From assembly GCA_963717935.1 (NCBI GenBank), contig CAVQXP010000004.1, positions 1,568,001-1,632,000 on the forward strand: a stretch of DNA of 64,000 bases, in the 5' to 3' direction. The position numbers and the translations under genes are program-made. The notes beneath the pieces are model-generated. The model did no database searches. It was not told the DNA's origin and saw nothing but the letters and a program-made list of their open reading frames with translations. The DNA comes from Candidatus Eiseniibacteriota bacterium. Lineage in GTDB: Bacteria > Eisenbacteria > RBG-16-71-46. Positions 567 to 19,169 of this stretch are shown here, one piece after another (the stretch's first letter is position 1; every line of letters begins with the position of its first letter).

Positions 567-1339
567 ACGGAGCGGCGCGCGGGAACGGGGCCGCCGCGGG
601 GGCATCGGGCGCGGAGCGGTCGCGCGCCGCCGCCGTCATCCGGCTCGAGGGCGTGACGCGCACCTACCGGGTGGGGGAGTCCGAGGTCCGCGCGGTGGAC
701 GGCGTCACACTCACCGTCCGCCGCGGCGAGTTCGTGGCGCTGATGGGGCCGTCGGGCTCGGGCAAGTCCACGCTCCTGAACCTGATCGGCTGCCTCGACA
801 CGCCGACCGCGGGCACCTACGCGCTCGAGGGCGAGCCGGTGGAGGGGCTCTCCGAGGACCGCCTCGCCGAGGTGCGCCAGCGCCGGATCGGCTTCATCTT
901 CCAGGCCTATCACCTGGTGCCGCGCATGACGGCGGCGCGCAACGTCGAGCTGCCGATGATCCTCGCCGGCGTGCCCCCGGCCGAGCGGCGCGAGCGGGTG
1001 GCGCGGGCGCTCGCGGCCGTCGGCCTCGCGCCCCGCGCGCACCATCGTCCCGACCAGCTCTCCGGCGGCGAGCGCCAGCGCGTGGCCATCGCCCGCGCCA
1101 CCATCAACCAGCCCGCCATCCTGCTCGCGGACGAGCCGACCGGGAACCTCGACACGCGGGCGGGCGGCGAGATCGTCGCCCTGCTCGAGGGGCTCAACCG
1201 CGACGGGCTCACGATCGTGCTCGTCACCCACGATCCCGGCGTGGCGGCGCACGCCGGGCGCATCCTGCACATGCGCGACGGCCGCATCCTGACGGAGGAC
1301 CCGCCGGTCGGGGCCGAGGCGCCCGGGGGCCGCGCGTGA
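563..1339 (+). CDS. ABC transporter ATP-binding protein, MacB/LolD family
   Basis: Walker A GPSGSGKST, signature LSGGERQRVAIAR, Walker B ILLADEPTGNLD, H-loop VTHD; ATG at 563 in an ATGA overlap. Confidence 0.93.
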   Translation: MNGAARGNGAAAGASGAERSRAAAVIRLEGVTRTYRVGESEVRAVDGVTLTVRRGEFVALMGPSGSGKSTLLNLIGCLDTPTAGTYALEGEPVEGLSEDRLAEVRQRRIGFIFQAYHLVPRMTAARNVELPMILAGVPPAERRERVARALAAVGLAPRAHHRPDQLSGGERQRVAIARATINQPAILLADEPTGNLDTRAGGEIVALLEGLNRDGLTIVLVTHDPGVAAHAGRILHMRDGRILTEDPPVGAEAPGGRA

Positions 1340-2556
1340 GCGGCGCGTTCCGCGGCGGGGACCTGCTCGGTCTCGCGTCCGAGTCGCTGCGGCTCCACCG
1401 CATGCGCACGGGGCTCACGCTGACGGCCATCGTCATCGGGGTGATCGCCGTGCTCCTGCTCACCACGCTCGGCGAGGCCGCCCGGAGCTACGTCGTGGAC
1501 CAGTTCGCGAGCATCGGCACGAACCTGATCATGGTCCAGCCCGGCAAGACCGAGACCACCGGCATGCCGCAGCCCCTCGGCGGCACGGTGCGCCCGCTGA
1601 CCATCGAGGACGTGGTGGCCATCGCGCACGAGTCGCCGTCCGTGAGCCGGGCAGCGCCCATCGCCCTGGGCACGGCGCGCTTCGAATACGCCGGCCGGAC
1701 GCGCGACGTCCGCGTGGTCGGCACCACCGCCGAGTACCAGCAGGTCCGCAACATGCGGCTGCTCTCGGGCAGCTTCCTGCCTCCGGGGGACCCGCGCCGC
1801 GGTGGGGCGGTGGCGGTGCTCGGGCGCACGGTGGCCCGCGAGGTGTTCGGCAGCGAGAGCCCGCTCGGCCGCCCGGTGCGGATCGGGCTGTGGCGCTTCC
1901 GCGTCGTCGGCGTGCTCGAATCCAAGGGGCAGGCATTCGGCATGAACATCGACGACTCGGTGGTGGTGCCGGCGGCGACCGCGCTGCGCATGTTCGACCA
2001 GCGCAGCCTGTTCCACGTCGCCCTGCAGGCCCGCGACGCCGCGCTCATCGCCTCGGCGCGCGAGCAGGCGCGGCGGGTGCTGCTGCGCCGGCACGACGGC
2101 GATGAGGACTTCACCATCGTCACCCAGGATGCCATGCTGGCCACGTTCCAGTCCGTCATCCGGGCCCTCACGGCGGCGCTCGCCGGCATCGCCGCCATCT
2201 CGCTCGCGGTGGCGGGCATCGGCATCATGAACGTCATGCTGGTCTCGGTCTCCGAGCGCACGGCCGAGGTCGGACTGCTGAAGGCCCTGGGCGCGAGCCG
2301 GCCGCAGATCCTGTCGCTGTTCCTCACCGAGGCCCTGCTGCTCTCGGGCGCCGGGGCACTGGCGGGGGTCGCGCTCGGGGTCGCCATCGTGTTCGCCGCG
2401 GCGCTGCTCTGGCCGGACCTGCCGCTGCGCCCGAGCCCGATGTGGATCGGCGCGGTCAGCGCGCTCACGCTGGCCGCCGGGCTCGCCTTCGGCCTGATGC
2501 CGGCGCGCCGCGCCGCGCGCTTGCAGGCGGCCCAGGCGCTGCGGGGGCGCATGTGA
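1336..2556 (+). CDS. ABC transporter permease, MacB/FtsX family
   Basis: N-terminal TM, periplasmic domain, GIGIMNVMLVSVSERTAEVGLLKALGA motif, three C-terminal TMs. Confidence 0.92.
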   Translation: MSGAFRGGDLLGLASESLRLHRMRTGLTLTAIVIGVIAVLLLTTLGEAARSYVVDQFASIGTNLIMVQPGKTETTGMPQPLGGTVRPLTIEDVVAIAHESPSVSRAAPIALGTARFEYAGRTRDVRVVGTTAEYQQVRNMRLLSGSFLPPGDPRRGGAVAVLGRTVAREVFGSESPLGRPVRIGLWRFRVVGVLESKGQAFGMNIDDSVVVPAATALRMFDQRSLFHVALQARDAALIASAREQARRVLLRRHDGDEDFTIVTQDAMLATFQSVIRALTAALAGIAAISLAVAGIGIMNVMLVSVSERTAEVGLLKALGASRPQILSLFLTEALLLSGAGALAGVALGVAIVFAAALLWPDLPLRPSPMWIGAVSALTLAAGLAFGLMPARRAARLQAAQALRGRM

Positions 2557-3755
2557 GCCTCGCCGACCTGTTCGGGCTCGCGCTCGAGGCGCTGCGCGGC
2601 CACCGGCTGCGCTACGCGCTGACGGCGCTGGCCGTGGCCGTCGGCATCAGCGCCGTGGTGCTGCTGTCCTCCATCGGCGAGGGCACCCGCCGCTTCATCG
2701 TCGGGCAGATGAGCCAGTTCGGCACGACCATCATCGGCGTCTACCCGGGCCGCACGCAGACCGGCGGCATGCCCGGCATGGTCTCCGGCAGCGTGCGCAA
2801 GCTCTCCCTCGACGACGCACGGGCGCTCACGCGCCTGCCGGGCGTGACGGGCGTGGTGCCCACCGTCTACGGCACCGCCGTCTACGAATACGCCGGACGC
2901 TCGCGGCGCACGTTCGTGTTCGGGGTCACGTCGCAAGCGACGCGGGTCTGGTCCATGCACGTCGTCAGCGGGCAATTCCTGCCGGCGATGGACTTCGACC
3001 GCGGCTCGCCGGTGGTCGTGCTGGGCCCCCGGGTCAAGCGCGAGCTGTTCGGCCTGGACAACGCGCTGGGCGCGACCATCCGCATCGGCGAATCGCGCTT
3101 CCGGGTGGTGGGCGTCATGGAGTCCAAGGGCCAGATGCTCGGCTTCGACCTCGACGATGCCGCCTACATCCCGGTGGCGAACGCCATGCGGCTGCTCAAC
3201 CGGCCCGAGATCGACGAGCTCGACGTGCTGGCCGCCTCGCCCGACGACATCGAGCCGGTGGCCGAGCGCATCCGCCGGACCCTCATCGAGCGCCACGACC
3301 GGCGCGAGGACTTCACCATCATGACCCAGAAGGAGGGGCTGGAGATGGTGAACAACATCCTCAACATCGTCTCCGCGGTGGTCACGGGCATCGCCGCCAT
3401 CAGCCTGCTGGTGGGGGCCATCGGCATCCTGACCATCATGTGGATCGTGGTGCAGGAGCGCGTGGCCGAGATCGGGCTGGTCAAGGCCCTGGGCGCCACC
3501 CGCGGGCAGATCCTGAGCTGGTACATGGTGGAGGCGGGGCTGACGGCGCTGGCGGGCGGCGTGGCGGGACTGCTGTTGGGAGTGGGGGGCGCCGCATTGC
3601 TGCAGAACGCGGTGCCGGGTCTCGAGAGCTACACCTCGCCCCTCACGGTATTGATGGCGCTGGCGGTCTCGTTCGCCGTCGGACTGGCGGCCGGCGTGGC
3701 GCCGGCGTTGCGCGCGGCGCGGCTCGACCCCATCGAGGCGCTGCACGGGGAGTAG
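2553..3755 (+). CDS. Second ABC transporter permease, MacB/FtsX family
   Basis: GTG start at 2553 overlaps the previous stop; GAIGILTIMWIVVQERVAEIGLVKALGA and AARLDPIEAL motifs. Confidence 0.92.
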   Translation: MSLADLFGLALEALRGHRLRYALTALAVAVGISAVVLLSSIGEGTRRFIVGQMSQFGTTIIGVYPGRTQTGGMPGMVSGSVRKLSLDDARALTRLPGVTGVVPTVYGTAVYEYAGRSRRTFVFGVTSQATRVWSMHVVSGQFLPAMDFDRGSPVVVLGPRVKRELFGLDNALGATIRIGESRFRVVGVMESKGQMLGFDLDDAAYIPVANAMRLLNRPEIDELDVLAASPDDIEPVAERIRRTLIERHDRREDFTIMTQKEGLEMVNNILNIVSAVVTGIAAISLLVGAIGILTIMWIVVQERVAEIGLVKALGATRGQILSWYMVEAGLTALAGGVAGLLLGVGGAALLQNAVPGLESYTSPLTVLMALAVSFAVGLAAGVAPALRAARLDPIEALHGE

Positions 3756-3773: not shown

Positions 3774-4361
3774 CTAGCCGGTCGTGCCGCCCCGCCCGGG
3801 TTCCAGGTCCTCCGGCCCGTTCCAGTTCACGAACTGGCCGACGTCCTGCGGCGGGCACGGGCACTCGTCCAGCAGACCGGCCTCCACGCCGTGGCGGACG
3901 AGTCCCGTCATCGCCGGGCGTCCTTCGGCCAGCAGGGCCGCGGCGGCCGGCTGCAGCGCCTTCGGATAGTAGGCCGCCAGGGGCTCGAGGCCCTGCGCGG
4001 TGCGCGGCACCACCCCGCGGCCCGCGCGGCAGCGCCCGGCCAGCCCGCGCAGGAAGTCCGCCGTCAGGTCCGGCAGGTCCACGGCCAGCACCAGCAGCAG
4101 CGGGCTGTGCGACTTGCCGAGCGCGCGCTCGACGCCGGCCAGCGGGCCGAGGTCCGCGAAGCGGTCCAGGAGCACCGGCAGGCCGAACGCGCCGTAGTCC
4201 GCCCCGGGCCGGCCGGAGATGAAGATCTCCGCGGGCGCGAGTTCGCGGGCGAGCCCGACCTGCCGCGCCAGCAGGGTCGTGCCCCGGCAGGGGAGGAACG
4301 CCTTGTCCTGCTGCATGCGGCTGGATCGCCCGCCCGCCAGGATCACCGCGCTGAACCGCAT
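3774..4361 (-). CDS. mobA: Molybdenum cofactor guanylyltransferase
   Basis: AVILAGGRSSRM..DKA, GPLAG, LAVDLP, LEPLAAYY, FVNWNGPEDL; GGAGG RBS before ATG at 4361. Confidence 0.9.
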   Translation of the reverse strand: MRFSAVILAGGRSSRMQQDKAFLPCRGTTLLARQVGLARELAPAEIFISGRPGADYGAFGLPVLLDRFADLGPLAGVERALGKSHSPLLLVLAVDLPDLTADFLRGLAGRCRAGRGVVPRTAQGLEPLAAYYPKALQPAAAALLAEGRPAMTGLVRHGVEAGLLDECPCPPQDVGQFVNWNGPEDLEPGRGGTTG

Positions 4362-4497
4362 CCGCTCACCGCCTCCCTGTCTGAGACTGGTCCTGCTGGA
4401 CGCTCCGACGGCCCGCACAAGGTAGAGGCTGGCTGGTTCCCTCGCCACTCCCGGATCCTCCGCGTGCGGAGCGCCGGGGAGCGTTGGCCGGATCGTC

Positions 4498-4667: not shown

Positions 4668-6871
4668 ATGCAGGCCCTGTCCCGCAGGCGGTTCCTCCAG
4701 GTCTCGGCCGGTGCTGCGAGTCTCGCCGTCGCCGGTGGCGCCGCGACGCAGGCCCGCTCGGCCCGCGAGCCGGGCGCCCGCGGCGCGGACCGGGTGCGCA
4801 AGGTCCCCACCTTCTGCGACGTCTGCTTCTGGAAGTGCGGCGCGATCGCCTACGTGAAGAACGATCGCCTGTGGAAGATCGAGGGCAACCCCGAGGATCC
4901 CCTGTCGCGCGGCCGCCTGTGTCCGCGCGGCACCGGCGGCGTGGGCGCCCACTTCGACACCCAGCGCCTGACCGCGCCGCTGATGCGCAAGCAGGTGCGC
5001 GGCGCCGAGGAGTGGGTCGCGGTGACCTGGGACGAGGCGCTCACGCACGTCGCCGGGAAGATGAAGGAGATCGCGGCGAAGCACGGCCCGGAGGCCATGG
5101 CGTTCTTCAGCCACGGCATCGGCGGCAACTTCCTCAAGCACACGCTCAAGGCCTACGGCACGCCGAACATCGCCGCCCCCTCGTACGCCCAGTGCCGCGG
5201 GCCGCGCGACGTGGGCTTCCAGCTCACCTTCGGCGAGGAGGTGGGCTCGCCCGAGCGCACCGACATCCGCAACGCGCGCTGCCTGACGCTGCTCGGCTCG
5301 CACCTGGGCGAGAACATGCACAACACCCAGGCCCAGGAGTTCGCCGAGGCGGTGGGCAGCGGCGCCTCGATCATCGTGGTCGACCCGCGCCTGTCGGTCG
5401 CGGCCAGCAAGGCGAAGTACTACCTGCCGATCAAGCCCGGCACCGACACCGCGCTGCTGCTGGCGTGGATGAACGTGCTGCTCGCCGAGGGCCTCTACGA
5501 TCGCGAGTACGTCGCCGCGCACGGCTTCGGCTTCGACGCCTTCGCGGCCGAGATCGCGCCCTTCACGCCGGAGTGGGCCTACCCGATCACGACCATCCCG
5601 CCCGAGCTGATCCGCGCGAGCGCGCGCGAGATGGCGCGCCACCGGCCGGCCAGCCTGGTGCACCCGGGACGCCACGTCACCTGGTACGGGAACGACGCGC
5701 AGCGCAGCCGGGCGATCGCGCTGCTCAACGCGCTGCTCGGCACCTGGGGCCGCAAGGGCGGCTTCTACCAGCCGGCCAGCATGGACGTGCCGGAGTATCC
5801 GTACCCGCCCTACCCGCACCCGGAGCGGGACCGGGCCGACAACCCGCGGAAGCGCTACCCGTTCGCCGAGACCGCCATCACGCACCGGCCTGCGCGACGC
5901 CACGCTCACGGGCGTGCCCTACCCGGTCAAGGGCTGGATGGTCTACGCCACCAACCTGCTCCAGGCGCTGCCCGACCAGGCGGAGACGCATCCGCGCCAT
6001 CCAGGCAGCTCGACCTGCTGGTCGTGCGTGGACGTGATCCCGAGCGAGATCGCGGGCTGGGCCGACGTGGTGCTGCCGGAGTCCGTCTACCTGGAACGCT
6101 ACGACGACCTGAACGTCGAGACCTTCCGCGAGCCGTTCATCGCGCTGCGCCAGCCGGTGGTCGAGGCGCCCGCCGACCAGAAGCCGAACTGGTGGATCGC
6201 GCGCGAGCTCGCGCTCAGGCTCGGGCTCCAGGCCTACTACCCGTGGAAGCACGTCGAGGAGTACCTCGACACCCGGCTCCGGGGGGCGGGCTCGAGCCTC
6301 GCCGAGCTCAAGACCCGGGGGATCGTGCGCGGCAAGCAGCCGCCGGTCTTCTACGAGGAGGGCGTCGCAGCCCGATCTTCCCGACGCCGTCGGGGAAGAT
6401 CGAGTTCTACTCGCTGCAACTGAAGGCGGCGGGCTTCGACCCGGTGCCGCGCTACCAGCCGACGCCGGAGCCGCCCCCGGGCGCGTTCCGCCTGCTCTAC
6501 GGCCGCGCGCCCATGCACTCGTTCAGCCGCACGCAGACCAACCCGCTGCTGCAGCGAGATGATGCAGCGAGAACGAGGTCTGGCTCAACGCCGCGTGGCG
6601 CGGCGCCTGGGGCTCGAGAGCGGCGCCTGGGTGCGCCTGCGCAACCAGGACGGCCGGCAGAGCAACCGCGTGCGGGTCCGGCCGACCGAGCGCATCCGCG
6701 GCGACTGCGTCTACATGGTCCACGGCTTCGGCCACACCGCGCGCGGGCTCCGGGCCGCGCTTCAAGCAGGGCGCCAGCGACGCGGGGCTCATCACCCGCT
6801 ACGAGCGCGACCCGCTCATGGGCGGCACCGGGATGAACGTCAACTTCGTCACCCTCGAGCCGGAGGCCTAG
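4668..6871 (+). CDS. psrA: Molybdopterin oxidoreductase catalytic subunit, polysulfide/thiosulfate reductase (PsrA/PhsA) type; several apparent frameshifts
   Basis: Tat signal SRRRFLQ; CDVCFWKC..C 4Fe-4S motif; SYAQCRGPR with putative Mo-ligand Cys; VVDPR; continues across frames through ADVVLPES.YLER, PTPSGKIEFYS and YMVHGFGH to MNVNFVTLEPEA-stop at 6871. Confidence 0.85.
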
Positions 6872-6874
6872 GCC

Positions 6875-7416
6875 GTGGCGCGCTTCGGGATGGTCATCGA
6901 CACGGTCCGCTGCGTCGGGTGCATGGACTGCGTGGTCGCGTGCAAGACCGAGAACGAGGTGCCCGAGGGGCTGTGCCGCGACTGGATCGTGACCGAGGCC
7001 GCGGGCGCGTTCCCCGACACGCGCCTGGAGATCCGCAGCGAGCGCTGCAACCACTGCGACCATCCGCCCTGCGTGCACTGCTGCCCGACCGGGGCCAGCC
7101 ACGTCGAGGAATACGGCCACCTGGTGCAGATCACGAAGGAATCGTGCATCGGCTGCAAGGCCTGCCTGGCGTCGTGCCCCTACGATGCGCGCTACGTCCA
7201 TCCGCGAAGGCTACGCCGACAAGTGCACCTTCTGCGTGCACCGCGTGAAGGAGGGCCTGCCGCCCGCGTGCGTCGCGGTCTGCCCGACCCACTGCATGCA
7301 CTTCGGCGACCTCGACGATCCGCACAGCGAGGTGAGCCGGTTGCTGCGCCTCGCGCCGCCACCACGCGCTGCTGCCCGAGGCGGGGACCGGGCCGCGCAT
7401 CTTCTTCCTGACGTAG
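6875..7416 (+). CDS. psrB: 4Fe-4S electron-transfer subunit (PsrB/NrfC type); frameshifts near 7205 and 7355
   Basis: [39 protein letters not shown], then KCTFC..R....PACVAVCP in a shifted frame; ends PRIFFLT-stop. Confidence 0.88.
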
Positions 7417-7436: not shown

Positions 7437-8375
7437 ATGATCGAGTTCACGAACACGCGCGCCAATCACCTGGTCGACCCGTTCCTGCAGGTCTGGGGCT
7501 GGGAGATCCCGGTCTACCTGTTCCTCGGCGGGCTGGTCGCCGGGATGATGGCGATCGCCGGCTGGTTCCTGCTCGCGGAGCGCCAGCGCAGGTCGGACTG
7601 CGTCTGCTCCGTGCTGCCCGGCCTGAGCCTCGTGCTGCTGAGCCTCGGCATGGGCGCGCTGTTCCTGGACCTCGAGCACAAGCCCTACGTCTGGCGGCTC
7701 TACACCACCTTCCAGCTCACCTCGCCGATGTCGTGGGGCGCCTGGATCCTGGTCGCCGTCTACCCGGCGCTGCTCGGCGCGCTGCTGCTCCGCGTGCCGG
7801 CGTTCCTGGGCCGGCGCTTCCCGGCGCTCGCCGCCCTCTCGGACGGGCTGCGCGCGCGGGCCCCGGTGGTGCGCGGGATCGCCGCCGCCAACATCGGCCT
7901 CGGCGGGCTGCTCGGGATCTACACCGGCATCCTGCTGAGCGCGCTGGGCGCGCGGCCGCTGTGGAACAGCGCGGTGCTCGGGCCGCTGTTCCTGGCCTCG
8001 GGCCTCTCGAGCGCCGCCGCGCTGGTGCACATGGTGGCCCGCGACCGCGCGGAGAGCGAGTTGCTGGCGCGGGCCGACAACCGCTTCCTGCAGGCCGAGC
8101 TCGTCCTGCTCGCGCTGTTCCTGATCGGCCTGCTCTCGGCCACCCAGGTCCACATCCGCGCGGTCGGACTGCTGCTCGGCGGTCCGTTCACCGCGGTGTT
8201 CTGGGTGGGCGTCGTGGGCATCGGCATCGTCCTGCCGTTGTTCATCCAGTCGCTCGCGGTGAGCCACCGGATCCGTCACACGCCGGTCGCGCCGCTGCTG
8301 GTGCTGGCCGGCGGTCTGTTGCTGCGCTTCGTGATCGTCTACGCCGGGCAGGTGAGCCGCTGGGGCCCGGTCTGA
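7437..8375 (+). CDS. psrC: NrfD/PsrC membrane anchor subunit
   Basis: WGWEIPVYLFLGGL, LDLEH, SPMSWGAW, YTGILL, RPLWN, GGLLLRF; about 8 TM segments. Confidence 0.9.
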   Translation: MIEFTNTRANHLVDPFLQVWGWEIPVYLFLGGLVAGMMAIAGWFLLAERQRRSDCVCSVLPGLSLVLLSLGMGALFLDLEHKPYVWRLYTTFQLTSPMSWGAWILVAVYPALLGALLLRVPAFLGRRFPALAALSDGLRARAPVVRGIAAANIGLGGLLGIYTGILLSALGARPLWNSAVLGPLFLASGLSSAAALVHMVARDRAESELLARADNRFLQAELVLLALFLIGLLSATQVHIRAVGLLLGGPFTAVFWVGVVGIGIVLPLFIQSLAVSHRIRHTPVAPLLVLAGGLLLRFVIVYAGQVSRWGPV

Positions 8376-8394
8376 TCCTTTGGAGGGAACGTCC

Positions 8395-8971
8395 ATGAGC
8401 ACTGTCCCGGATGCCGCTCCCGCCGTCGCGGGGCCGGAGTCGCGCGCGCCCGTCCGCGCCGCGGCCCCGTACATGAATCCCTACCTCGCCGGCATCGGGC
8501 TCGGGCTCGTGCTGCTGGCCGCCTACGTGGTCATGGGCCGCGGCCTCGGCGCCTCGGGCGCGGTGACCTCGTTCGTCTCCTGGGCCCTGAGCCTGGTGTC
8601 GCCCGCGCACGTGAAGGGCAACGGGTTCTTCGTGGAGTATCTGGAGGGCGGCATCGGCCACCCGCTCAAGACCTGGCTCGTGTTCGAGGTCCTGGGCGTG
8701 CTGGCCGGGCGGCTTCATCTCCGGCGCGCTCGCGGGCCGGCTGTCGCGCACGGTCGAGAAGGGACCGCGCATCTCGGTGGCCGGCCGCCTCGGCTTCGCC
8801 TTCGCCGGCGGCGCGCTCATGGGCATCGGCGCCAAGCTCGCCCGCGGCTGCACCAGCGGCCAGGCACTGAGCGGCGGCGCGGTGCTCAACGCCGGCTCGT
8901 GGGCGTTCATGATGATGGTGTTCGCGGGCGCCTACGCGCTGGCGGGGCTGATGAGGAGGCAGTGGCGATGA
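8395..8971 (+). CDS. YeeE/YedE family sulfur-compound transporter, half 1; frameshift near 8710
   Basis: YMNPYLAG, GLGASG, then GGALMGIGAKLARGCTSGQALSGG in a shifted frame. Confidence 0.82.
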
Positions 8972-9573
8972 ACGCGCCCTTCTACAAGTTCGGAGCCTTC
9001 GGTGACGAGGTCTCGCTGGTGTTCGCGTTCGTGATCGGGATCGGGTTCGGCTTCTTCCTCGAGCGCGGCGGATTCGGCAGCGCGCGCAAGCTGACCTCGC
9101 AGTTCTACCTGGACGACCTCGCGGTGTTCAAGGTCATGTTCACCGCCATCGTCACCGCGATGCTGGGCCTGTTCTACCTGTCGTGGCTGGGCCTCCTGGA
9201 CCTGTCCCTGGTGAACCTGGTCACCACCAATCTCTGGCCGCAGATCGTGGGCGGGCTCGTGCTCGGGTTCGGCTTCGTGATCGGCGGTTACTGCCCGGGC
9301 ACCTCGCTGGTGGCCGCGGTGACCGGCCGCATCGACGGCGTGATCTTCATCCTGGGCGTGATGGCCGGCGTGTTCGTGTTCGGCGAGGCGTTCCCGCTGC
9401 TCCGGGGCTTCTACGAATCCGGCGACTTCGGCGAGCTCACCCTGCCGCAGGTCTTCCACCTGCCCTACGGGCTGGTGGTGTTCCTCGTGGTGGTGATGGC
9501 GGTGGGCGGCTTCATGGGTGGCGAGTGGGTGGAGCGCCGCTTCGCCCCGCGCGTGACGGAGCGCCGGCCATGA
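8968..9573 (+). CDS. YeeE/YedE family sulfur-compound transporter, half 2
   Basis: GIGFGFFLERGGF, VFKVMFTAI, GGLVLGFGFVIGGYCPGTS; ATGA overlap with the upstream gene. Confidence 0.88.
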   Translation: MNAPFYKFGAFGDEVSLVFAFVIGIGFGFFLERGGFGSARKLTSQFYLDDLAVFKVMFTAIVTAMLGLFYLSWLGLLDLSLVNLVTTNLWPQIVGGLVLGFGFVIGGYCPGTSLVAAVTGRIDGVIFILGVMAGVFVFGEAFPLLRGFYESGDFGELTLPQVFHLPYGLVVFLVVVMAVGGFMGGEWVERRFAPRVTERRP

Positions 9574-10229
9574 CCCGCATCCACTGGACCCTGAAGCGCG
9601 CGCTGGCCACGGCCGCGTTGCTGCTGGGCGTGGTCGCGATCGCCGGCAATCCCTACCGCGGGAGCACCGTGCGCATCGACACGCAGGAACTGGCGACCCT
9701 GGTGAGCACCGAGGTCGACCACGTCACGCCCCGCGAACTGGCCGACTGGATCATCCAGGGCCGGACCGACTACCGCCTGATCGACCTGCGCTCCGCGCAG
9801 GACTTCGAGGGCTACCACATCCCGACCGCCGAGAACGTCCCGGTCGCCCTGCTGCCCCGGTACGGCCTCGGGCGGGACGAGCGGATCGTCCTGTACTCCG
9901 AGGGCGGCATCCACTCCGCGCAGGCGTGGTTCCTGCTCAAGGCGCAGCGCTACCCCGGAGCCTACATCCTGCTCGGCGGTCTCGAGGCCTGGAAGGACGA
10001 GGTGCTCTACCCGGTCGTGCCGGCCGCCGCGAGTCCGCAGGAGAACGCCGCCTTCGAGCGCGCGGCCCAGGTGGCGCGCTTCTTCGGCGGCGGCCCGCGC
10101 GCGGCTGACTCCGGCCATCTGATGGCGTTGCCGGCCACTCCGGCGCCGGGCGTCGGGATCGCCCCGCCCAGGGCGCCGGCCGCGGGCGGGCCCGCGGTGC
10201 CGCGCAAGAAGAAGAAGGAAGGCTGCTAG
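9570..10229 (+). CDS. Membrane-anchored or exported rhodanese-like protein with Ser at the catalytic position and a C-terminal Cys
   Basis: LIDLRS...GYHIPTAENV, IVLYSEGG (normally YC), LLGGLEAW; Pro/Ala tail ending KKKKEGC. Confidence 0.85.
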   Translation: MTRIHWTLKRALATAALLLGVVAIAGNPYRGSTVRIDTQELATLVSTEVDHVTPRELADWIIQGRTDYRLIDLRSAQDFEGYHIPTAENVPVALLPRYGLGRDERIVLYSEGGIHSAQAWFLLKAQRYPGAYILLGGLEAWKDEVLYPVVPAAASPQENAAFERAAQVARFFGGGPRAADSGHLMALPATPAPGVGIAPPRAPAAGGPAVPRKKKKEGC

Positions 10230-10233
10230 GGCG

Positions 10234-11712
10234 CTACGTGTCGCCCGCCAGCTCGCGCAGGCGCTCCAGCAGCCGCACCGTGCCCCAGGTGTCGAGTTCG
10301 CAGTAGCGCAGCAGCGCCTTGCGCAGCCGGGCCTTCTCCGCCGCCTCCAGCGTGCCGCCGCGCAGCAGTAGTCGTGACAGTTCGAGCGTCGCGATGCTGC
10401 CGTCCGAGACCTCGAGTTCGTCGTAGCTCAACTCGGGCACCAGCACGGGCAGCACGCTCTTCAGGCTGAAGCTGCCGCCGAAGCCGGGGTGGTAGAGGTG
10501 GTCGCGCACGGCGGGCAGCAGGTCCACGATCCGCGCCTCGATGGCCTGCATCGCGCGGGCCGACTTCGGGCCCAGCGCCGCGCCCAGCCCGCGCAGGCAG
10601 GTCTTCTCGAAGCTCGCGTTGTACGCGACGATGGCCCCGGCGCCGGCGCAGGCCGCGGCCAGCGCCTCCGCGATCGGGGGCCGCGGATCGCCCGGGCCCT
10701 CGGCGAGCCACTCGAAATGCTCGTAGCCGCCGCCGCGCTTCTGCCGGTGGCAACTGAACTGGACCGGGACGTTGTCGTAGGGGTGGCCGCCGTCCCACAC
10801 CGGGATGGCGGGGTTGATGGTCTCGAAGTCGAGGAAGGCCAGCGGCGGCTCGAACTCCTGCAGCGCGTCGCGCAGCGAGGGCTCCACGATCATCTCGTTC
10901 GATACCACCGAGCGGCGCTGGCGCTCGGCCGTCGGGTTGAGGCTCATGCCCGCGGACAGGGCCTGGATGGTGCGGCAGCCGCCGGCCTCGAGGTCCCAGG
11001 CCCTCTTCCCGATGCGGTAGAGCGTGCTGACGTGATGCTCCGGCAGGTCCGCCCAGCAGCGGGAGAGGAAGGGGCAGTCGCGGGGCGAGCTGCAATGCGG
11101 GCCGATGGCGACCCCGGGCAGCGGCCCCTCCAGCATCCGCAGTTGCTCCTGCGCCTGCGCGGGCACGTCGGGCAGCAGGGCCGCGACCTCGCCGGTCACG
11201 TCGTCGCGCACGAACAGGTCGCTCAGGTCCGGGAAGACGCACGCGCGGTTCAGGTGCATGATCTCGACGCTGCGCACCTCGAGCCCCGCCTGTCCCAGGA
11301 CGTGCGCCTGGATGGCGGCGTCCGGCAGGTGCTCGGGCTTGGCGCTGGTGGACGACTTGACCTCGATCAGGCCGAAGCCGCCGCGCAGCCGCTCGAGGAT
11401 GTCCACCGCCACGAACACGCGGCCGGCGAAGAAGGAGGCCTCGTAGATGACCCGGGCCCCGGCCGCCAGCGCCGCGGCCGTGGCCTCGACCTTCGCCTGG
11501 ATCTGCTCGTGGGGGAAGTCGATCAGCATTCCGCCGGGCACGTAGCTGCGCGCCAGTTCCCCGACGTTCGTGCCCTGGTCGAAGATCGCCTGAGTCTGCG
11601 CGTCGGGGACGAGTTCGGGCGCGTCCGGCTCGTGCACGCGCCACCAGAGTTGCCTGTGGCACTGGAGCCCCGCGGTGAAACGGGACTTGGAGAGGCGAAG
11701 GGCGGGGCTCAT
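10234..11712 (-). CDS. DUF2779-type protein: Cas4/RecB-like nuclease domain plus DEDD/RNase H-like domain
   Basis: LSKSRF...QC, VDIL..LIEVKSST, AIQ, CSSPRDCPFLSRC; FLDFET, YNASFE, SLKSVLP, YCELDT. Confidence 0.82.
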   Translation of the reverse strand: MSPALRLSKSRFTAGLQCHRQLWWRVHEPDAPELVPDAQTQAIFDQGTNVGELARSYVPGGMLIDFPHEQIQAKVEATAAALAAGARVIYEASFFAGRVFVAVDILERLRGGFGLIEVKSSTSAKPEHLPDAAIQAHVLGQAGLEVRSVEIMHLNRACVFPDLSDLFVRDDVTGEVAALLPDVPAQAQEQLRMLEGPLPGVAIGPHCSSPRDCPFLSRCWADLPEHHVSTLYRIGKRAWDLEAGGCRTIQALSAGMSLNPTAERQRRSVVSNEMIVEPSLRDALQEFEPPLAFLDFETINPAIPVWDGGHPYDNVPVQFSCHRQKRGGGYEHFEWLAEGPGDPRPPIAEALAAACAGAGAIVAYNASFEKTCLRGLGAALGPKSARAMQAIEARIVDLLPAVRDHLYHPGFGGSFSLKSVLPVLVPELSYDELEVSDGSIATLELSRLLLRGGTLEAAEKARLRKALLRYCELDTWGTVRLLERLRELAGDT

Positions 11713-11927
11713 GTGGAGTGCGGCCTCCGAGGGGGACAGGTCCGGCGGATGGCGAGTGTAGCGGAACGCGTGCTCCGCCGGGAACGCGAGGAGCCCATCC
11801 TTCCGGGACCGCGACCGGGGCCCCGGCGTCGACGTGACCGGCCTTCTCCGAACCTCGGGCCCGAACGCCGAGCGGCCACCCCGCCGTGGAGGTGGCCGCC
11901 CCGACAGAAGCGTCCCAATCGTCCCCC

Positions 11928-13067
11928 TCACTGCACCAGCGTCACCCGCCGCACCAGGTTCGTGCCCGGGCCGCTGAGCCGCACGAAGTAGAGCCCGGGG
12001 CTGACCGGCGCGCCCGAGCCGCCGGGCCGCCAGGTGACGCTGCCCTCGCCCGAGACCCCGTCCGCCAGCCGCGCCACGCGCGCGCCGCGCACGTCGAACA
12101 CGTCCACGCTCAGCGGGCCGCCGCCGGCGAAGCGCACGGTCAGCACGTCGCGGAACGGCGAGGGGCCCGCGGCCAGGCGGACGCCGGTGTTGGCGACCAC
12201 GGGCGGCACGTCGGCGCTGGAGCCGGGCACGGCCGGGTGTCCGGCGTTCAGCCAGGCGGTGTAGACGTACGAGGCGGTCATCACGCTCGCCGTGTCGAGC
12301 CGCGCCTGGGTCAGGGTGTGCGTGCTGCTCCACAGCGATGCGTAATAGATCGAGTTGTACGATCCGCCCGACGCCGCCTTGGCGACGTTGTCGGCCACGA
12401 GGATGGGGCTTACCTTGGCCCAGGAGGCGGCGATGACGTCGAAGGCCGCGTCCAGCGCGCCCGGGTAATAGAGCGCGGTCATCGCCGGGGTGTGCAGCAG
12501 GGAGAGGTAGGTGGAGAGCATGGTGCTCTCGTAGCGCGAGTGGATCCCGTCGTTGCCGGTGAACTGGCCGTCGTAGTTCTGCGTGCAATGGAGCGGCTGG
12601 TTGGCGTCGCCCACGTAGTGGCAGAGATCGGCGATGGTCAGCGTGGCGGCGCTCCAGTCCTGCGTCTGGAACTGCTGCGTGAGCGTGGTCACGACCTCGT
12701 CGATCGCCCACGGCAGCACGCCGTAGTAGAGCACCGTGGATGCGCCGTAGAGGGCCTCGAGCGTGGCCCGGTCGCGCGGCAGGGTGCCGGCCAGGAACTC
12801 GGGGTACGCGTCGATGTCGATGTAGTGCCGGTAACTCTCCCCGGGCGTGTACGACTTGCGCGTGTCGGCGTCGGTGACGTGCAGGTCCACCACGCTGTCG
12901 TAGGTGCGCAGGCCGTCGATGTAGGCGGGCAGGTGCTGCGAGTAGTTCTGCGCGATGTAGTGGTGGCCTACCGAGCCCCAGGTCCAGCCGGTCGAGGGAA
13001 GGACCGCGCAGAGGAAGGCGGCGAGGACTGCGATGGAGGCGTGCCGCACGCGGTTCGAATCGAGCAT
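11928..13067 (-). CDS. Secreted S1/P1-family zinc nuclease with C-terminal T9SS/FlgD-like sorting domain
   Basis: Signal peptide then WGSVGHH, HYIDID, HYVGDANQPLH, IHSRYE; C-terminus PSPF...VFDVRGARV...GLYFVRL...RVTLVQ. Confidence 0.82.
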   Translation of the reverse strand: MLDSNRVRHASIAVLAAFLCAVLPSTGWTWGSVGHHYIAQNYSQHLPAYIDGLRTYDSVVDLHVTDADTRKSYTPGESYRHYIDIDAYPEFLAGTLPRDRATLEALYGASTVLYYGVLPWAIDEVVTTLTQQFQTQDWSAATLTIADLCHYVGDANQPLHCTQNYDGQFTGNDGIHSRYESTMLSTYLSLLHTPAMTALYYPGALDAAFDVIAASWAKVSPILVADNVAKAASGGSYNSIYYASLWSSTHTLTQARLDTASVMTASYVYTAWLNAGHPAVPGSSADVPPVVANTGVRLAAGPSPFRDVLTVRFAGGGPLSVDVFDVRGARVARLADGVSGEGSVTWRPGGSGAPVSPGLYFVRLSGPGTNLVRRVTLVQ

Positions 13068-13131
13068 GATGTTCCCTTCGCACCGGGATGAGATTCTGGG
13101 TGCCTGTCTGGAGTGCCCTGGGACCGTCAGG

Positions 13132-13140
13132 AGGATACCA
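13132..13140 (-). promoter_or_regulatory. Putative extended -10 promoter of the S1/P1 nuclease gene
   Basis: TGgTATCCT on the minus strand, 65 bp upstream of the start. Confidence 0.45.
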
Positions 13141-13316
13141 CCTTCCGCGCGGGAACTGCCCGGGATCGGGCCGGCGAGGTCCGGCGAAGAGGACCCGGGC
13201 TGCGGGCCGGGGCTCGCGGTCCCGTCCGCTTGCTCGCGAATCCACCGACGCCCTGCGTGTCTCTCACGGTCGAGCCTCGACCGTCCTGCCCCCGACCGAT
13301 CGAAAGGAACCTCCCC

Positions 13317-13883: not shown

Positions 13884-14810
13884 ATGATCGAGCAGTTCCA
13901 CCGGCCGGCCACGGTCCGCGAAGCCCTCGCCCTGAAGAAGCGATTCCAGAGCCGGGCGCTCTTCCTCGGGGGCGGGACGTATCTCAACTCGAACGCCTGC
14001 GCCCTGTGCCCCGAGCGGCGCGTCAGCCTCGCGGGCCTCGGACTCGATCGAAGCGAACGGAAGCAGGGCGCCGTGATCACCCGGCCCCTCTGCTCGAGCG
14101 TCTGCGCCCTGCGCCCCGCACATCTCATCAGCCTCGCGGGCCTGGGGCTCGCTCGCGTCGGGGTGAAGCAGGGCGTCGTGACCATCGGGCCCCTCTGCAC
14201 GTTCCAGCGGCTGATCGAGGACCGGAAGGTCCCGGCGGCCCTGAAGGCGGCGGTCTCCCAGGTCGTGCCCCGGAACGTCCGCGAGGCCGCGACTCTCGGC
14301 GGGCATGTGGCCTGCGCTCTGCCGTACAGCGACGTGATCCCCATGCTGGTGGCGCTGGACGCGAAGGTCGGGCTGTCGCGCGCCGGTGCCGCGAAGACGA
14401 TCTCCGTCGCGGACTACGTCGCGAAGCCGCCCTCGGGCCTCATCACGAAGATCGTCCTGCCCCGGCCCCGGGCCGGGCGGGTGGCCGCGTGCCGCAATGC
14501 CCGGGCCTCCGCCAACGCGCGTTCGATCGTCAGCGCGGCGGTCGCCGTGACGGTCGTCCGGGACGCCGTGAGGCACCCGGTCATCGTGCTGGGCGGCCTG
14601 GCGGGCCACGTCGCGAGGCTGACCGCGGTCGAGGAGGCGCTGGACGGCAGGCCCCTGCCCGCGATGGATGAGCTGCAGGCGCTGGCGAGCCGGGCGGTGC
14701 GGCCCGGCGCCGATCTCTCGGGCAGTGCCGCGTTCCGCAGGTACCAGGCCGGGGTGGTCGTGGCGCTGGCGCTGCGGGACGCCCTCGGGCAGAAGCGGGG
14801 CCGGCCATGA
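13884..14810 (+). CDS. ygfM: Molybdenum hydroxylase FAD-binding subunit, YgfM-like, with an internal 35-aa tandem duplication
   Basis: MIEQFHRP start, FLGGGT, RNVREAATLGG, DLSGSAAFRRY; TAGAAT -10 at 13835-13840. Confidence 0.8.
   Translation: MIEQFHRPATVREALALKKRFQSRALFLGGGTYLNSNACALCPERRVSLAGLGLDRSERKQGAVITRPLCSSVCALRPAHLISLAGLGLARVGVKQGVVTIGPLCTFQRLIEDRKVPAALKAAVSQVVPRNVREAATLGGHVACALPYSDVIPMLVALDAKVGLSRAGAAKTISVADYVAKPPSGLITKIVLPRPRAGRVAACRNARASANARSIVSAAVAVTVVRDAVRHPVIVLGGLAGHVARLTAVEEALDGRPLPAMDELQALASRAVRPGADLSGSAAFRRYQAGVVVALALRDALGQKRGRP
13989..14198 (+). repeat. Diverged in-frame 105-bp tandem duplication within ygfM
   Basis: 13989-14093 (SNACALCPERRVSLAGLGLDRSERKQGAVITRPLC) vs 14094-14198 (SSVCALRPAHLISLAGLGLARVGVKQGVVTIGPLC). 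Confidence 0.9.
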
Positions 14811-17690
14811 GGATCTCGGTCAAGGTCAACGGGACGCGCAGGGAGTTCGAGGTCCACCCGGGCGAGCGGGTGCGCGACCTGCTGCGGCGCGAGCACCTCC
14901 TCTCGGTGCGCAACGGCTGCGACGGCCAGGGCAGCTGCGGCGCCTGCTCGATCATCCTCGACGGGCGGACGGTCAACTCCTGCCTGCTGCTGGCGCCGCA
15001 GGTGGACGGCCGGGAGATCCGCACCGTCGAGCACCTGGCGAAGGACCGGGAGCTGTCGGCGATCCAGACGGCGTTCATCGACGCGGGCGTGGTCCAGTGC
15101 GGTTACTGCACGCCGGCGATGCTGCTCGCCACGGAGGCGCTGCTCTCGCGCCACGAGCACCCGACGCGCGAGCAGGTCCGCGACGCCCTCTCGGGGGTCT
15201 TCTGCCGCTGCACCGGCTACGAGCAGTACTTCGCGGCGGTCGAGCTGGCGGCGAAGCGCCGCAAGGACCCGGCGCACGCGGCGGCGAAGGGGCAGGAGTT
15301 CCGCGAGGACCTGCGCATCGTCGGCAAGCCGGCGAAGAAGGTCGACGGCCCGCGGCTGGTGCGCGGCGAGAAGGCCTACGTCGAGGACATGGCCCCGTGC
15401 GACACCTGCCATCTCAAGGTGCTGGGCTCGCCGCACGCGCACGCCTACATCAGGAGCATCGACACGAGCCGGGCCGAGGCGATGCCGGGGGTCGTGCTGG
15501 TGCTGACCCACGAGAACTGCCCGGACGTCTACTACAACACGGCCGGGCAGGGATTCCCCGAGCCCTCGCCCTACGATCGGAAGATGTTCGGCGAGAAGCT
15601 GCTCCACGTCGGCGACCGCGTGGCCGCGGTCGTGGCGGAGACCGTCGAGATCGCCCAGGCGGCCCTGCGCAGGATCAAGGTCGAGTACGAGGTGCTCGAG
15701 CCCGTGCTGTCGATCGAAGCGGCCGCGGCGCCGGGGGCGCCCGTGCTGCACGGCGGCGTGATCGAGTACGTCGCCGGCGCGCCGGCGGATCTCGACAACC
15801 GCGGGGCCGATCCGCGCGACGGCCGGATCATCTACCAGTTCCCCATCCATGGCGATCCGCGCCGCAACCTCGCGGCCAGCGTCACGGGCGGCATCGGCGA
15901 CGTCGCCCGGGGGTTCGCCGAGGCCGAGGTCGTGATCGAGCGCGAGTACGAGACCTCGCAGGTCCAGTGCGCGCCGGTCGAGCCTCACGTCGTCTGCACG
16001 AGGATCGAGGGCGAGCGCCTGGTCATCCACGCCTCCACGCAGGTGCCCTGGCACGTGCGCCGCATCGTGTCGCGGGTCCTGGGCATCAGCGAGAACCAGG
16101 TGCGCGTGATCAAGGAGCGCGTCGGCGGTGGCTTCGGCGCGAAGCAGGACATGGTGCTCGAAGAGGTCGCCGCGTACGCGACCTGGGTGACGGGCCGGTC
16201 GGTGCTCTACCGCTTCACCCGCGAGGAGGAGTTCATCGCCTCCCGCACGCGCCACCCCATGAAGATCAAGGTGGCCCTGGGGGCGAAGCGGGACGGCGGG
16301 CTGACGGCGGTGAAGATGGACGGTCCGCGCCAACACCGGCCCGTACGGGGCGCACTGCCTGACGGTCCCGATGAACGCCTGCTCGAAGAGCCTGCCGCTG
16401 CTGCTCTGCGAGAACGTGCACTTCGACGTGCAGAGCTTCTACACGAACGTGCCGCCGTGCGGGGCCTACCAGGGCTACGGGGCGCCGCAGGGCTCCTACG
16501 CCCTGCAGCTGGCCTGCGCCGAGCTGGCGGATGCGCTCGGCATGGACCCGCTCGCCTTCCTCGAGAAGAACCGGGTCCGCGAGGGCACGATGCTCGAGAT
16601 CCTCAAGTGCCTGGGAGAAGGGCGCGAGGGCACGCCGCAGGAGGTCTCGAGCTGCGGCCTCGGGCCGGCGCTCGAGCAGGGCCGCGCGATGATCGAGTGG
16701 GGCGCGGTGGTGGCGAGCGACGATCCCGACGTGCGGATCGGCAAGGGCGTGGCGATCATCCAGCAGGGCTCCGGGCTGCCGGGCATCGACTCCGCGAACG
16801 CCAGCGTCGCCCTGCTCGGCGACGGCACCTTCATGCTGCTGAGCGGCGGGACCGACATGGGCACGGGCCTCGACACGCTCGTCGTCAAGCTCGTGGCCGA
16901 GTGCCTCTGCACCGGGATCGGCGACGTCTCGCTGATCGTGGCGGACACCGACGTGACGCCCTACGACGACGGCGCGTACGCCTCGAGCGGGACCTTCTTC
17001 TCGGGCAACGCGGCGCTGAACGCGGCGCAGGGGATGAAGCAGAAGCTGCTCGAGACGGCCGCACGGATCCTGGACGAGCCCGCGGAGGGCCTGGGACTCG
17101 TCTTCCCGTCCACGGTGACGGGCGGTTCGCGCCCGGTCTCCTATGCCGAGATCTCGCGCTTCACGGTCTCGGGCACGGGCACGGGGCAGCTCATGACCTC
17201 CGCCTGCTACACGACCGACAAGGCGGCGTTCCCCTACGGCGCGCACTACTGCCAGGTGGCGGTGAACACGCGCACCGGCGCGGTGAAGGTGCAGAAGTAC
17301 TACGCGCTGCAGGACTGCGGCACGCCGATCAACCCCGAGCTCGCGCTCGGGCAGATGTACGGCGGCGTGCTCAAGACCATCGGCCACTCGCTGTTCGAGG
17401 AGATGCTGCTGGACGAGCGGGGGCGGTGCCGCAACGCGAACCTGGTTGAGTACAAGGTCCCGATGATCCACGACCTGCCCGACGACTTCCGCGCGGTGCT
17501 GGTCGAGACCACCGATCCCTTCGGGCCGTACGGCAGCAAGTCGGTGTCGGAGATCGCCTGCAACGGGGCGGCGCCCGCGATCGCGGCGGCGATCCACGAC
17601 GCGACCGGCGTGTGGATGCGCAGCTGGCCGTTCAGCGCCGAGAAGATCCTGCGCGCGCTGGGCCGGCTGGGCGGGGACGCGAAGCGATGA
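14807..17690 (+). CDS. xdhD: Xanthine-dehydrogenase-family fused 2Fe-2S/Mo subunit, XdhD (YgfN)-like; frameshift near 16322
   Basis: GCDGQGSCGAC..NSC, QCGYC, CRCTGY, STQVPW, GGGFGAKQ; second frame YQGYGAPQ, GTDMGTG, AYASSGT, KSVSEIACNG. Confidence 0.88.
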
Positions 17691-19165: not shown

Positions 19166-19169
19166 CCCG

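Follow-up and report, generated by a model that had tools for sequence, protein, structure and literature searches.

A Cys-less rhodanese with a tethered C-terminal cysteine, paired with split YeeE channels, as a probable sulfur carrier

Closest described systems

The rhodanese-type protein Sud of Wolinella succinogenes, which we take to be a soluble periplasmic polysulfide-sulfur transferase with a loop Cys that presumably passes sulfur to PsrA, offers the first comparison for the gene analysed here. This gene, rhd (9570-10229, forward strand, 219 amino acids (aa)), lies in a 64,000-nucleotide stretch of a Candidatus Eiseniibacteriota genome (assembly GCA_963717935.1, contig CAVQXP010000004.1, positions 1,568,001 to 1,632,000; hereafter the window, in which all coordinates are counted). 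According to its translation, Pfam, homologs, alignment and AlphaFold2 (AF2) model, it encodes a rhodanese without the catalytic Cys and with a Cys tethered at the C-terminus. By analogy with described carriers, such a protein is probably a sulfur carrier of a kind not yet described. It is like Sud in being a rhodanese-type, predicted periplasmic protein tied to PsrA (with the Psr association holding in the EGC clade only, named here after the last three residues), and unlike Sud in having Ser, Gly or Ala in the loop, the Cys on a C-terminal tether, a membrane anchor and a tie to a pair of YeeE genes. The missing loop Cys and the retained membrane helix place it outside the Sud-type transferases, and no Sud chain occurs among its 11 PDB sequence matches at E <= 0.01.

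A hand-over of sulfur from the SoxY Cys to the YeeE-like channel SoxT1A, and onward to cytoplasmic sulfurtransferases, has been proposed in a 2024 paper that leaves the mechanism of this hand-over explicitly open (PMC11582611). The analogy with SoxY drawn in an earlier reading of this stretch from its sequence alone (hereafter the original prediction) is apt. Both proteins would bear the carrier Cys in the periplasm, on a flexible C-terminal peptide where it is flanked by Gly, although SoxY has another fold, pairs with SoxZ and has a short arm without a membrane anchor, whereas the arm of rhd runs to ~45 residues and includes a basic patch, and rhd is encoded together with the channel and in some cases fused to it. 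Pfam finds only Rhodanese in rhd, and the annotated cassettes contain no SoxZ-like gene; neither the fold nor the partner of SoxY is present, and the shared trait is a functional analogy only.

The YeeE1 and YeeE2 proteins encoded beside rhd correspond to PmpA-like and PmpB-like halves, each with one conserved Cys. Halves of the PmpA/PmpB type are each reported to hold one essential pore Cys and measure ~130 aa in PmpAB (PMC11582611), as against ~180-200 aa in the present cassette, and YedE1E2 pairs are reported to import zero-valent sulfur (PMC10812762). The YeeE/YeeD (TsuA/TsuB) system is similar in that a YeeE-family channel with essential pore cysteines stands next to a small Cys-bearing partner. 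However, YeeD/TsuB is TusA-like, cytoplasmic and unrelated in fold, whereas rhd is an anchored rhodanese predicted on the periplasmic side, and it thus shares only the adjacency and the fusion with such partners. The closest solved single-domain relative, YgaP of E. coli, likewise joins a single rhodanese domain to a membrane anchor, but it has a catalytic loop Cys (C63), and its domain is the cytoplasmic one of an inner-membrane protein (title of PDB entry 2moi).

The same cassette (MerR, psrABC, two Sulf_transp genes and a 'rhodanese-related sulfurtransferase') has been described in Ca. Thermonerobacter, Melioribacter roseus and Ignavibacterium album (PMC6338057), in an account whose accessible part treats the gene as a sulfurtransferase only and is silent on the missing loop Cys, the terminal Cys, the fusions and the Psr-less operon presented below. 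Further rhodaneses in related contexts are a three-domain exported one in the Psr context of Desulfurivibrio (PMC12142623) and the 38 and 45 kDa proteins SrrE and SrrF of selenite reductase (PMC12481199). Within the full-text literature covered (subscription papers fall outside it), no account of a Cys-less rhodanese ending in a tethered Cys turned up, and thus none of a reactive Cys moved from the loop to a terminal tether; there was also nothing on an obligate pairing or fusion of such a rhodanese with split YeeE, and nothing on a modular swap of PsrABC for a tandem rhodanese plus desulfurase. The database names seen are 'rhodanese-like' or 'hypothetical' only (RefSeq lists the copy of Chondrinema litorale as 'rhodanese-like domain-containing protein'), and the protein atlas clusters of the family are called 'hypothetical protein' only.

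The family bears on two open questions, namely the route of sulfane sulfur to polysulfide reductase and its membrane crossing via YeeE-type channels. It is a natural, genetically hard-wired test case, in which the carrier Cys is tethered, and sometimes fused, to the channel and two partner sets mark the ends of the path. It is also widespread, with 216 loci in the species-representative genomes scanned, 372 in the metagenome contigs scanned and 214 representative clusters at E <= 1e-30. Reconstructions that count rhd as an active sulfurtransferase from its rhodanese domain misstate its chemistry, and by the analogies above a 'dead' rhodanese domain may well belong to a live sulfur carrier.

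A rhodanese domain without the loop nucleophile

The protein begins with a membrane helix (residues 8-25; 9591-9644) that the AF2 model, the flank charges and the fusions indicate to be an anchor or uncleaved signal with a cytoplasmic N-terminus. It continues with the rhodanese homology domain delimited by Pfam and alignments (residues 53-143; 9726-9998), whose loop S110-E-G-G-I-H-S-A-Q lacks the catalytic Cys (S110 codon at 9897-9899). The folded part is closed by an extra conserved helix (residues 156-171) and an F-G-G-x-P-R motif (172-177; both within 10035-10100; AF2 and alignment). A disordered Ala/Pro-rich arm follows (10101-10202), variable in sequence and constrained in measured length, and then, as seen in the translation and in homolog tails, a basic patch with the terminal E-G-C (RKKKKEGC, residues 212-219; 10203-10226) ahead of the stop codon (10227-10229). 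The sole Cys is residue 219 (codon 10224-10226). In the AF2 model (predicted local distance difference test, pLDDT, 84.6) the helix at 8-25, a rhodanese fold at 38-146 and the helix at 156-171 are resolved, and residues 183-209 are disordered (pLDDT <50). The hydrophobic N-terminus and the single Cys in last place, behind KKKKEG, had both been noted in the original prediction and are borne out by the model and the translation.

Membership in the rhodanese homology domain follows from a sequence score above the curated cut-off (Pfam Rhodanese, PF00581, over residues 53-143: E 5.6e-15, 56.1 bits versus 22.2) together with the alpha/beta fold; the top Foldseek matches of the model are all rhodanese domains, of a generic kind only. 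No curated NCBIfam rhodanese family (GlpE, MoeZ, rhoda_near_glyco, rhodanese_LYCAU and others) reaches its cut-off for rhd, the best attaining 36.6 bits versus 647, and the NCBIfam matches stay below their own cut-offs both for the window protein (7/7) and for its ortholog in the Ignavibacteriota reference locus, L039 (10/10). The upstream YeeE frame closes with a TGA that shares bases with the rhd start codon, the ATG at 9570 (ATGA). In this window of 71% G+C, the periodicity of third-position G+C (GC3) backs the rhd frame to ~10000 and is flat over the tail (10051-10229), and the gene itself aligns in a single frame by tblastn.

The active-site loop reads IVLYSEGG, with S110 at the place of the catalytic Cys, as the original prediction had noted, and opposite the C63 position of YgaP. 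S110 aligns with the mutated residue (Asp) of PDB entry 5hbq, titled as the YgaP C63D mutant (phmmer against PDB chains; title from Foldseek), and the best match of rhd in SseA (1urh) is the Cys-less N-terminal domain, where S110 again stands opposite an Asp. The catalytic column was compared over 146 sequences (145 representatives at 50% identity of at most 450 aa, plus the query): it holds S in 114, G in 13, A in 13, T in 2, D in 1, C in 1 and a gap in 2. With a loop Cys in only 1/146 sequences, the protein does not belong with the catalytically active rhodaneses/sulfurtransferases, and the expectation that homologs would not show Cys at this position held. Ser110 as a substitute nucleophile was rejected as well, since Gly or Ala stands in its place in 26/146 sequences and the Ser hydroxyl is therefore dispensable. 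Across the alignment, the loop Cys is essentially never present in the family, yet the terminal Cys persists. At the conserved domain His positions H51, H83 and H115, other subfamilies mostly have Arg, Lys, Gln or Asn, and these positions would form an anion-binding rather than a metal-binding surface. Two close homologs (P0072 and P0099) carry a second Cys one residue ahead of the loop Ser (...VLCSEGG...), and in a distant representative (P0151) a Cys in the catalytic position goes together with a retained EGC end.

Conservation of the tethered terminal cysteine

The word-indexed homolog search returned 1431 proteins at E <= 0.001 among 8000 candidates scored, and the tails were compared in the best 120 sequences (the query and 119 homologs, 208-234 aa). 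EGC ends 117/119 homologs (the other two end in DGC and EGF), and exactly one Cys, the terminal one, is present in 110/120 sequences, query included. The scan of one genome per species gave the 216 confirmed loci, of which the best 80 were analysed; contig ends cut two open reading frames (ORFs), and 77 of the 78 complete ones end in a K/R-rich run plus EGC (the exception is L048). These best 80 loci span at least 8 phyla and belong to Candidatus Eisenbacteria (with the closest relatives of rhd, 76-79% identical), Gammaproteobacteria including Steroidobacteraceae, Acidobacteriota, Ignavibacteriota/Melioribacter, Bacteroidota, Gemmatimonadota, Calditrichota and KSB1. The conservation of the terminal Cys on which the original prediction had staked its case is thus found in both samples, to an extent well beyond chance.

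An alignment of 124 sequences shows no variation at G218 and C219 and at least 90% conservation at E217, and likewise at F172, G173 and P176 around the invariant G174; the linker in between has no majority residue. A profile search of 1.84 billion representatives at 50% identity yielded 214 proteins at E <= 1e-30, and among the best 150 of them a terminal Cys is present in 117 (67 EGC, 33 other GC, many of these RRRGC, and 17 other x-C), the remaining 33 being mostly fragments or long multi-domain proteins. After the FGG motif, the arm of the EGC clade has a median length of 47 residues (interquartile range 44-50) and consists of 31% Ala and 20% Pro (144 of 163 proteins measured; 19/163 EGC and 4/20 R-G/A-C proteins without the anchor motif were left out). 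An arm of constrained length and free sequence is what is expected of a tether. Judged by this pattern, the terminal Cys is under strong selection while the linker drifts.

Because GC3 is flat over the tail and neighbouring genes are broken in frame, the tail was suspected to be a frameshift artefact, which its conservation in homologs rules out. A general sorting or modification tag was also rejected for this genome, where rhd has the sole Lys-rich plus EGC ending among 18284 frames of at least 80 aa (five other [KR]-rich...GC endings are Arg/Pro-rich high-GC frames). Distant matches in related genomes (L008-L020) were dropped as family members, having ordinary MoeZ/ThiF-type rhodanese tails or no match. 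The copy on a plasmid of Chondrinema litorale (L101) ends in ...GGCS, so that its Cys is last but one, has Gly in place of the loop Ser, and is followed by a second, smaller anchored rhodanese-like protein of 139 aa without any Cys (L101:7549-7965).

Pairing and fusion with the YeeE channel

Fusions of YeeE2 to the rhodanese form nine representative clusters (seven full-length, two N-terminally truncated) and occur in both tail classes. In these, a short basic loop leads from the last YeeE helix into the hydrophobic helix of the rhodanese itself, and then comes a conserved G-x-P-Y-R-G segment; therefore, the N-terminal helix is a true membrane span, with the rhodanese domain on the side opposite the basic loop. 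The flanks of the helix in stand-alone proteins average charges of +1.36 (N side) and -0.29 (C side; n = 111). Taken together, the positive N-flank, the fusion topology, the Tat signal of PsrA and the signal peptide of the tandem rhodanese described below argue for a periplasmic location of domain and tail. An A-x-A site after the helix of stand-alone proteins may be a candidate cleavage site.

Complex prediction was carried out for YeeE1, YeeE2 and Rhd of L039 with a 39-row alignment each. The score of 0.48 (best control 0.06) lends weak support to a complex, given that the mark of this test is reached by 116/157 solved complexes and 2/215 mismatched pairs and that scores of at most 0.60 cover only 18/157 of the former and both mismatches. 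Agreement in contacts between the runs is at least 84%, with a partner pLDDT of at least 68. In light of the fusions and the synteny, the prior for a YeeE-Rhd complex is already high.

The psrABC-yeeE1-yeeE2-rhd cassette

In clean low-GC loci of the EGC clade the gene order is a MerR/HspR-like regulator, a Tat-signal Mo enzyme of the PsrA/PhsA type, PsrB, PsrC (NrfD), YeeE1, YeeE2 and the rhodanese, often followed by molybdenum cofactor (Moco) genes (MoaA, MoaC/B, MobA). Synteny was counted by tblastn with the L039 proteins over the 80 loci, taking only those with sufficient upstream DNA: PsrA lies upstream of rhd in 54/54, PsrB in 61/61, PsrC in 66/66, YeeE1 in 75/75 and YeeE2 in 76/76 loci, and MerR stands ahead of the cassette in 21/51. 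Of the co-occurrence proposed as a check in the original prediction, that of the psr/YeeE neighbourhood with the EGC tail is seen at every judgeable locus. One Cys per YeeE half is conserved (YeeE1 76/76, YeeE2 76/80 orthologs). PsrA is 64-84% identical across phyla, which suggests that the cassette spread horizontally.

All cassette genes of the window lie on the forward strand. The catalytic subunit psrA (4668-6868), of the Mo-bis(pyranopterin guanine dinucleotide) (Mo-bisPGD) polysulfide/thiosulfate-reductase type, matches NCBIfam PhsA and Pfam Molybdopterin/Fe4S4 and is split over three frames (tblastn with L039 PsrA: frames 3, 1 and 2). The four-cluster ferredoxin subunit psrB (6875-7410; Fer4_11) likewise takes three (6875-7207, 7206-7349 and 7351-7410 in frames 2, 3 and 1). 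The NrfD-type membrane quinol subunit psrC follows (7437-8375; Pfam NrfD E 4.2e-43; 60% identity to L039 PsrC over 7437-8363). The PmpA-like yeeE half 1, with the C-terminal half of the Sulf_transp model, has approximate coordinates (8428-8971) and two frames (8467-8751 in frame 1, 8699-8968 in frame 2), and yeeE half 2 (8962-9573), which matches that model's N-terminal half, aligns over 8953-9540 at 70% identity (Pfam Sulf_transp/DUF6691) and ends in the ATGA overlap. The YeeE pair named in the original prediction therefore stands as two genes by homology, although the window shows one open frame there (8380-9573) and the first gene needs two.

The L039 PsrA aligns with the Thermus thermophilus PsrA (2vpw) over residues 5-730 (E 7.6e-223, 745 bits), including the Cys of the ...C-x-x-P-R... 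segment, which is presumably the Mo ligand. By sequence (a full-length PsrA together with PsrB and PsrC domains), the neighbouring enzyme thus belongs to the PsrABC polysulfide reductases, its substrate being a prediction only. PsrA orthologs carry Tat signals.

A Psr-less sister clade

Aligned by themselves, 20 representatives of the RRRGC type have the architecture of the EGC clade, with C213 as the sole invariant tail residue. For this sister clade, a scan of metagenome contigs confirmed the 372 loci, and the best 80 of them were analysed. Cys is the last residue in 76/76 complete tails (62 RGC, 13 RAC, 1 KGC), and YeeE1 and YeeE2 lie upstream in 33/33 and 48/48 loci, whereas PsrA (0/9), PsrB (0/20) and PsrC (0/22) were found in none of the judgeable loci among these 80. 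In all 9 annotated loci the order is an exported two-domain rhodanese, YeeE1, YeeE2, the Cys-less rhodanese and a cysteine-desulfurase-like enzyme of the class-V aminotransferase fold, whose start overlaps the rhodanese stop (e.g., L115:2056-8960). Counted over loci with sufficient flank, the tandem rhodanese stands upstream in 21/21 loci of the R-G/A-C clade versus 0/66 of the EGC clade (window included), and the desulfurase-like gene downstream in 36/37 versus 0/72.

The NCBIfam models nearest to these flanking proteins are 3-mercaptopyruvate sulfurtransferase and the SufS/CsdA cysteine desulfurases, all below their cut-offs. The tandem rhodanese of L115 has a signal peptide and a Cys in the loop of its C-terminal domain, and the desulfurase-like protein is without a signal peptide by inspection. 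In the three loci annotated further upstream (L114, L124 and L115), a histidine kinase and an OmpR-type regulator precede the operon, which in L124 continues with a CopD-family gene.

Within the phylum of L039, 11 of the 201 sampled genomes hold the family, and with two further carriers 13 loci were compared: 10 have EGC tails behind PsrC and 3 have non-EGC tails (...RDGC, ...NYGC and ...RDQC) behind a tandem rhodanese. Here, as in the counts above, the tail type follows the periplasmic partner. The sister clade, which we consider to be newly recognised here by its gene content, keeps the YeeE pair and the terminal Cys without PsrABC, and the YeeE pair is therefore the obligatory partner. Of the two partners named in the original prediction, the YeeE pair is retained as such and PsrA becomes clade-specific. 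Going by gene content, the core unit is best described as a split YeeE channel plus a putatively periplasmic tethered Cys, with PsrABC as a clade-specific, not obligatory, partner.

Reading-frame breaks in this assembly

As judged by tblastn, psrA, psrB and yeeE1 of the window each need 2-3 reading frames. Contigs of related strains are without one base at 5881, 5989, 6004, 6028, 6368, 6375, 6552, 6565, 6755, 7206 and 7347, exactly at the frame switches, and the breaks are likely 1-nt insertion errors in the assembly of this 5-contig genome, the alternative being recent decay into pseudogenes. The read comparison covered four runs, all of which gave contigs of relatives (at most 0.30 of the sampled words in any run). 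Among the 40/694 substitutions and 12/38 indels listed, no difference falls within 9570-10229, a result that neither confirms nor refutes the Ser and Cys codons. RNA contigs are 90-95% alike over parts of the cassette; they come from relatives and are no evidence for expression of this copy.

Proposed mechanism and alternative explanations

We reason that rhd is, with moderate likelihood, a SoxY-like swinging-arm carrier of sulfane sulfur (persulfide/polysulfide), tethered to the membrane, facing the periplasm and serving both the channel and PsrA. The reactive thiol would be the very last residue, on a ~45-residue flexible Ala/Pro arm behind a basic patch, and not in the rhodanese loop. The heterodimeric split YeeE channel, with one conserved pore Cys per half, would form a unit with rhd, and the terminal Cys would swing between the periplasmic mouth of this channel and a clade-specific periplasmic partner. 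In the EGC clade this partner would be the Tat-exported PsrABC, reducing or loading the Cys-bound sulfur, and in the sister clade the exported two-domain rhodanese, with the cysteine-desulfurase-like enzyme on the cytoplasmic side. The Cys-less rhodanese domain may act as a docking or anion-cradle module, and the basic patch may draw in or steady the negatively charged sulfur chain, or help the tail to dock. The sections above show how the protein is built and conserved, its two partner sets, the synteny, the fusions and the logic of the topology; from these we infer persulfide formation on Cys219, the way in which the sulfur flows and the identity of the element.

Several points weigh against the swinging-arm carrier. 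Persulfidation of Cys219 is deduced by analogy, and the substrate could be selenium or thiosulfate instead of polysulfide. The complex prediction is only a weak pass and came without returned contacts that would place the tail. The correlation between tail type and partner reflects two clades, and thus essentially one evolutionary split, not independent events. A polybasic patch is not obviously drawn to a substrate funnel built for anions, and if the frame breaks in psrA, psrB and yeeE1 are real lesions, this copy of the system may be inactive. In addition, pore cysteines ~7 Å apart may be too far from each other for a direct Cys-to-Cys transfer (PMC11582611).

An extended form of the carrier reading, possible though doubtful, would make the trio of YeeE1, YeeE2 and Rhd a transmembrane cysteine wire, the sulfur counterpart of the DsbD thiol relay. 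Sulfane sulfur would cross the membrane one atom at a time along the two pore cysteines and the terminal Cys, linked in the cytoplasm to a supplier or acceptor of persulfide (for the sister clade, the desulfurase-like enzyme), with the last tripeptide tuned to the PsrA funnel (E-G-C) or to the tandem rhodanese (R-G/A-C) and with PsrABC acting on protein-bound substrate rather than on free polysulfide.

The same architecture might handle another element, through a Cys-S-Se adduct (or tellurium, arsenic), the Psr-like enzyme and the YedE-like channel then serving selenite/selenide handling and uptake. The YeeE halves do score weakly against YedE 'selenium transporter' models, and the sister-clade tandem rhodanese weakly resembles ExtH of the selenite/tellurite operon, but all these scores are much lower than the curated cut-offs. 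The 21/51 loci counted above have a MerR-type regulator ahead of the cassette, and a respiratory selenite reductase operon is reported to hold rhodanese-domain proteins (PMC12481199). However, PsrA is closely related, over its full length, to the polysulfide reductase of Thermus (745 bits) and the sister clade couples the trio to a cysteine-desulfurase-like enzyme, and although genes of the selenium-dependent Mo-hydroxylase type lie 3.6 kb downstream in the window, they are outside the conserved cassette in other loci; we regard this explanation as fairly unlikely. Nor is it probable that the terminal Cys serves as a gate or redox switch, the basic tail plugging the periplasmic mouth of YeeE like a ball on a chain and being locked or released through a disulfide or persulfide with a pore Cys. 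The fact that rhd is obligately paired with the YeeE halves, and in part fused to them, whether or not Psr is present, the conserved pore cysteines, the flexible arm of constrained length and the weak pass of the complex test (0.48, best control 0.06) would all suit such a plug, which nevertheless requires neither a strictly terminal Cys nor a preceding Gly and leaves unexplained why the last three residues differ between the Psr-coupled and the rhodanese-coupled clades while the channel is unchanged.

Polybasic-plus-Cys tails target eukaryotic small GTPases to the membrane, and by analogy the basic stretch and the terminal Cys of rhd might be a site of covalent modification (lipid or cofactor) through which the C-terminus is attached to the membrane or a partner. 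A polybasic run right ahead of a terminal Cys is typical of such tails, and the Lys-rich plus EGC ending is unique in the genome (1 of 18284 frames). Yet an N-terminal anchor is already present, no candidate modifying enzyme is conserved in either annotated cassette, and we know of no bacterial system that modifies a polybasic tail with terminal Cys (no search aimed at one was made), all of which renders this possibility very improbable. The least credible account, to which we give hardly any weight, is that the domain merely has a structural or regulatory part in the YeeE/Psr complex, the terminal Cys being incidental or only stabilising: non-catalytic, Cys-less rhodanese homology domains are well known and rhd aligns best with the Cys-less N-domain of SseA, but an incidental residue would not be the best-conserved tail position across clades whose linkers and preceding residues have diverged.

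Neighbouring genes

Divergent from the cassette lies a gene for a MobA-like NTP transferase (3774-4448, reverse strand; Pfam NTP_transf_3, E 2.1e-31), a function in molybdenum cofactor guanylylation; MobA-like genes also flank the cassette in L045 and L085. Upstream of it, 425-3755 hold an ABC ATPase and two permease genes of the MacB/FtsX type, unrelated to the cassette elsewhere. On the other side, a long ORF with a DUF2779 domain (10234-13245, reverse strand) comes directly after the rhodanese stop, and the contig of a related strain diverges from the window exactly at 10228, which makes the 3' boundary of the cassette a synteny break. In the L039 reference locus, a 160-aa ORF without a Pfam or NCBIfam match (L039:8913-9395) lies between the rhodanese and MoaA; tblastn did not find it in the other 79 loci. 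Further downstream in the window, and outside the cassette conserved elsewhere, a cluster resembling selenium-dependent molybdenum hydroxylases (13884-21323) comprises an FAD subunit (13884-14810), an XDH-like Mo/Fe-S subunit broken into two frames (14807-17449 and 16371-17690) and, after these, an amidohydrolase (17612-19165) and a protein of the YqeC family (20460-21323).

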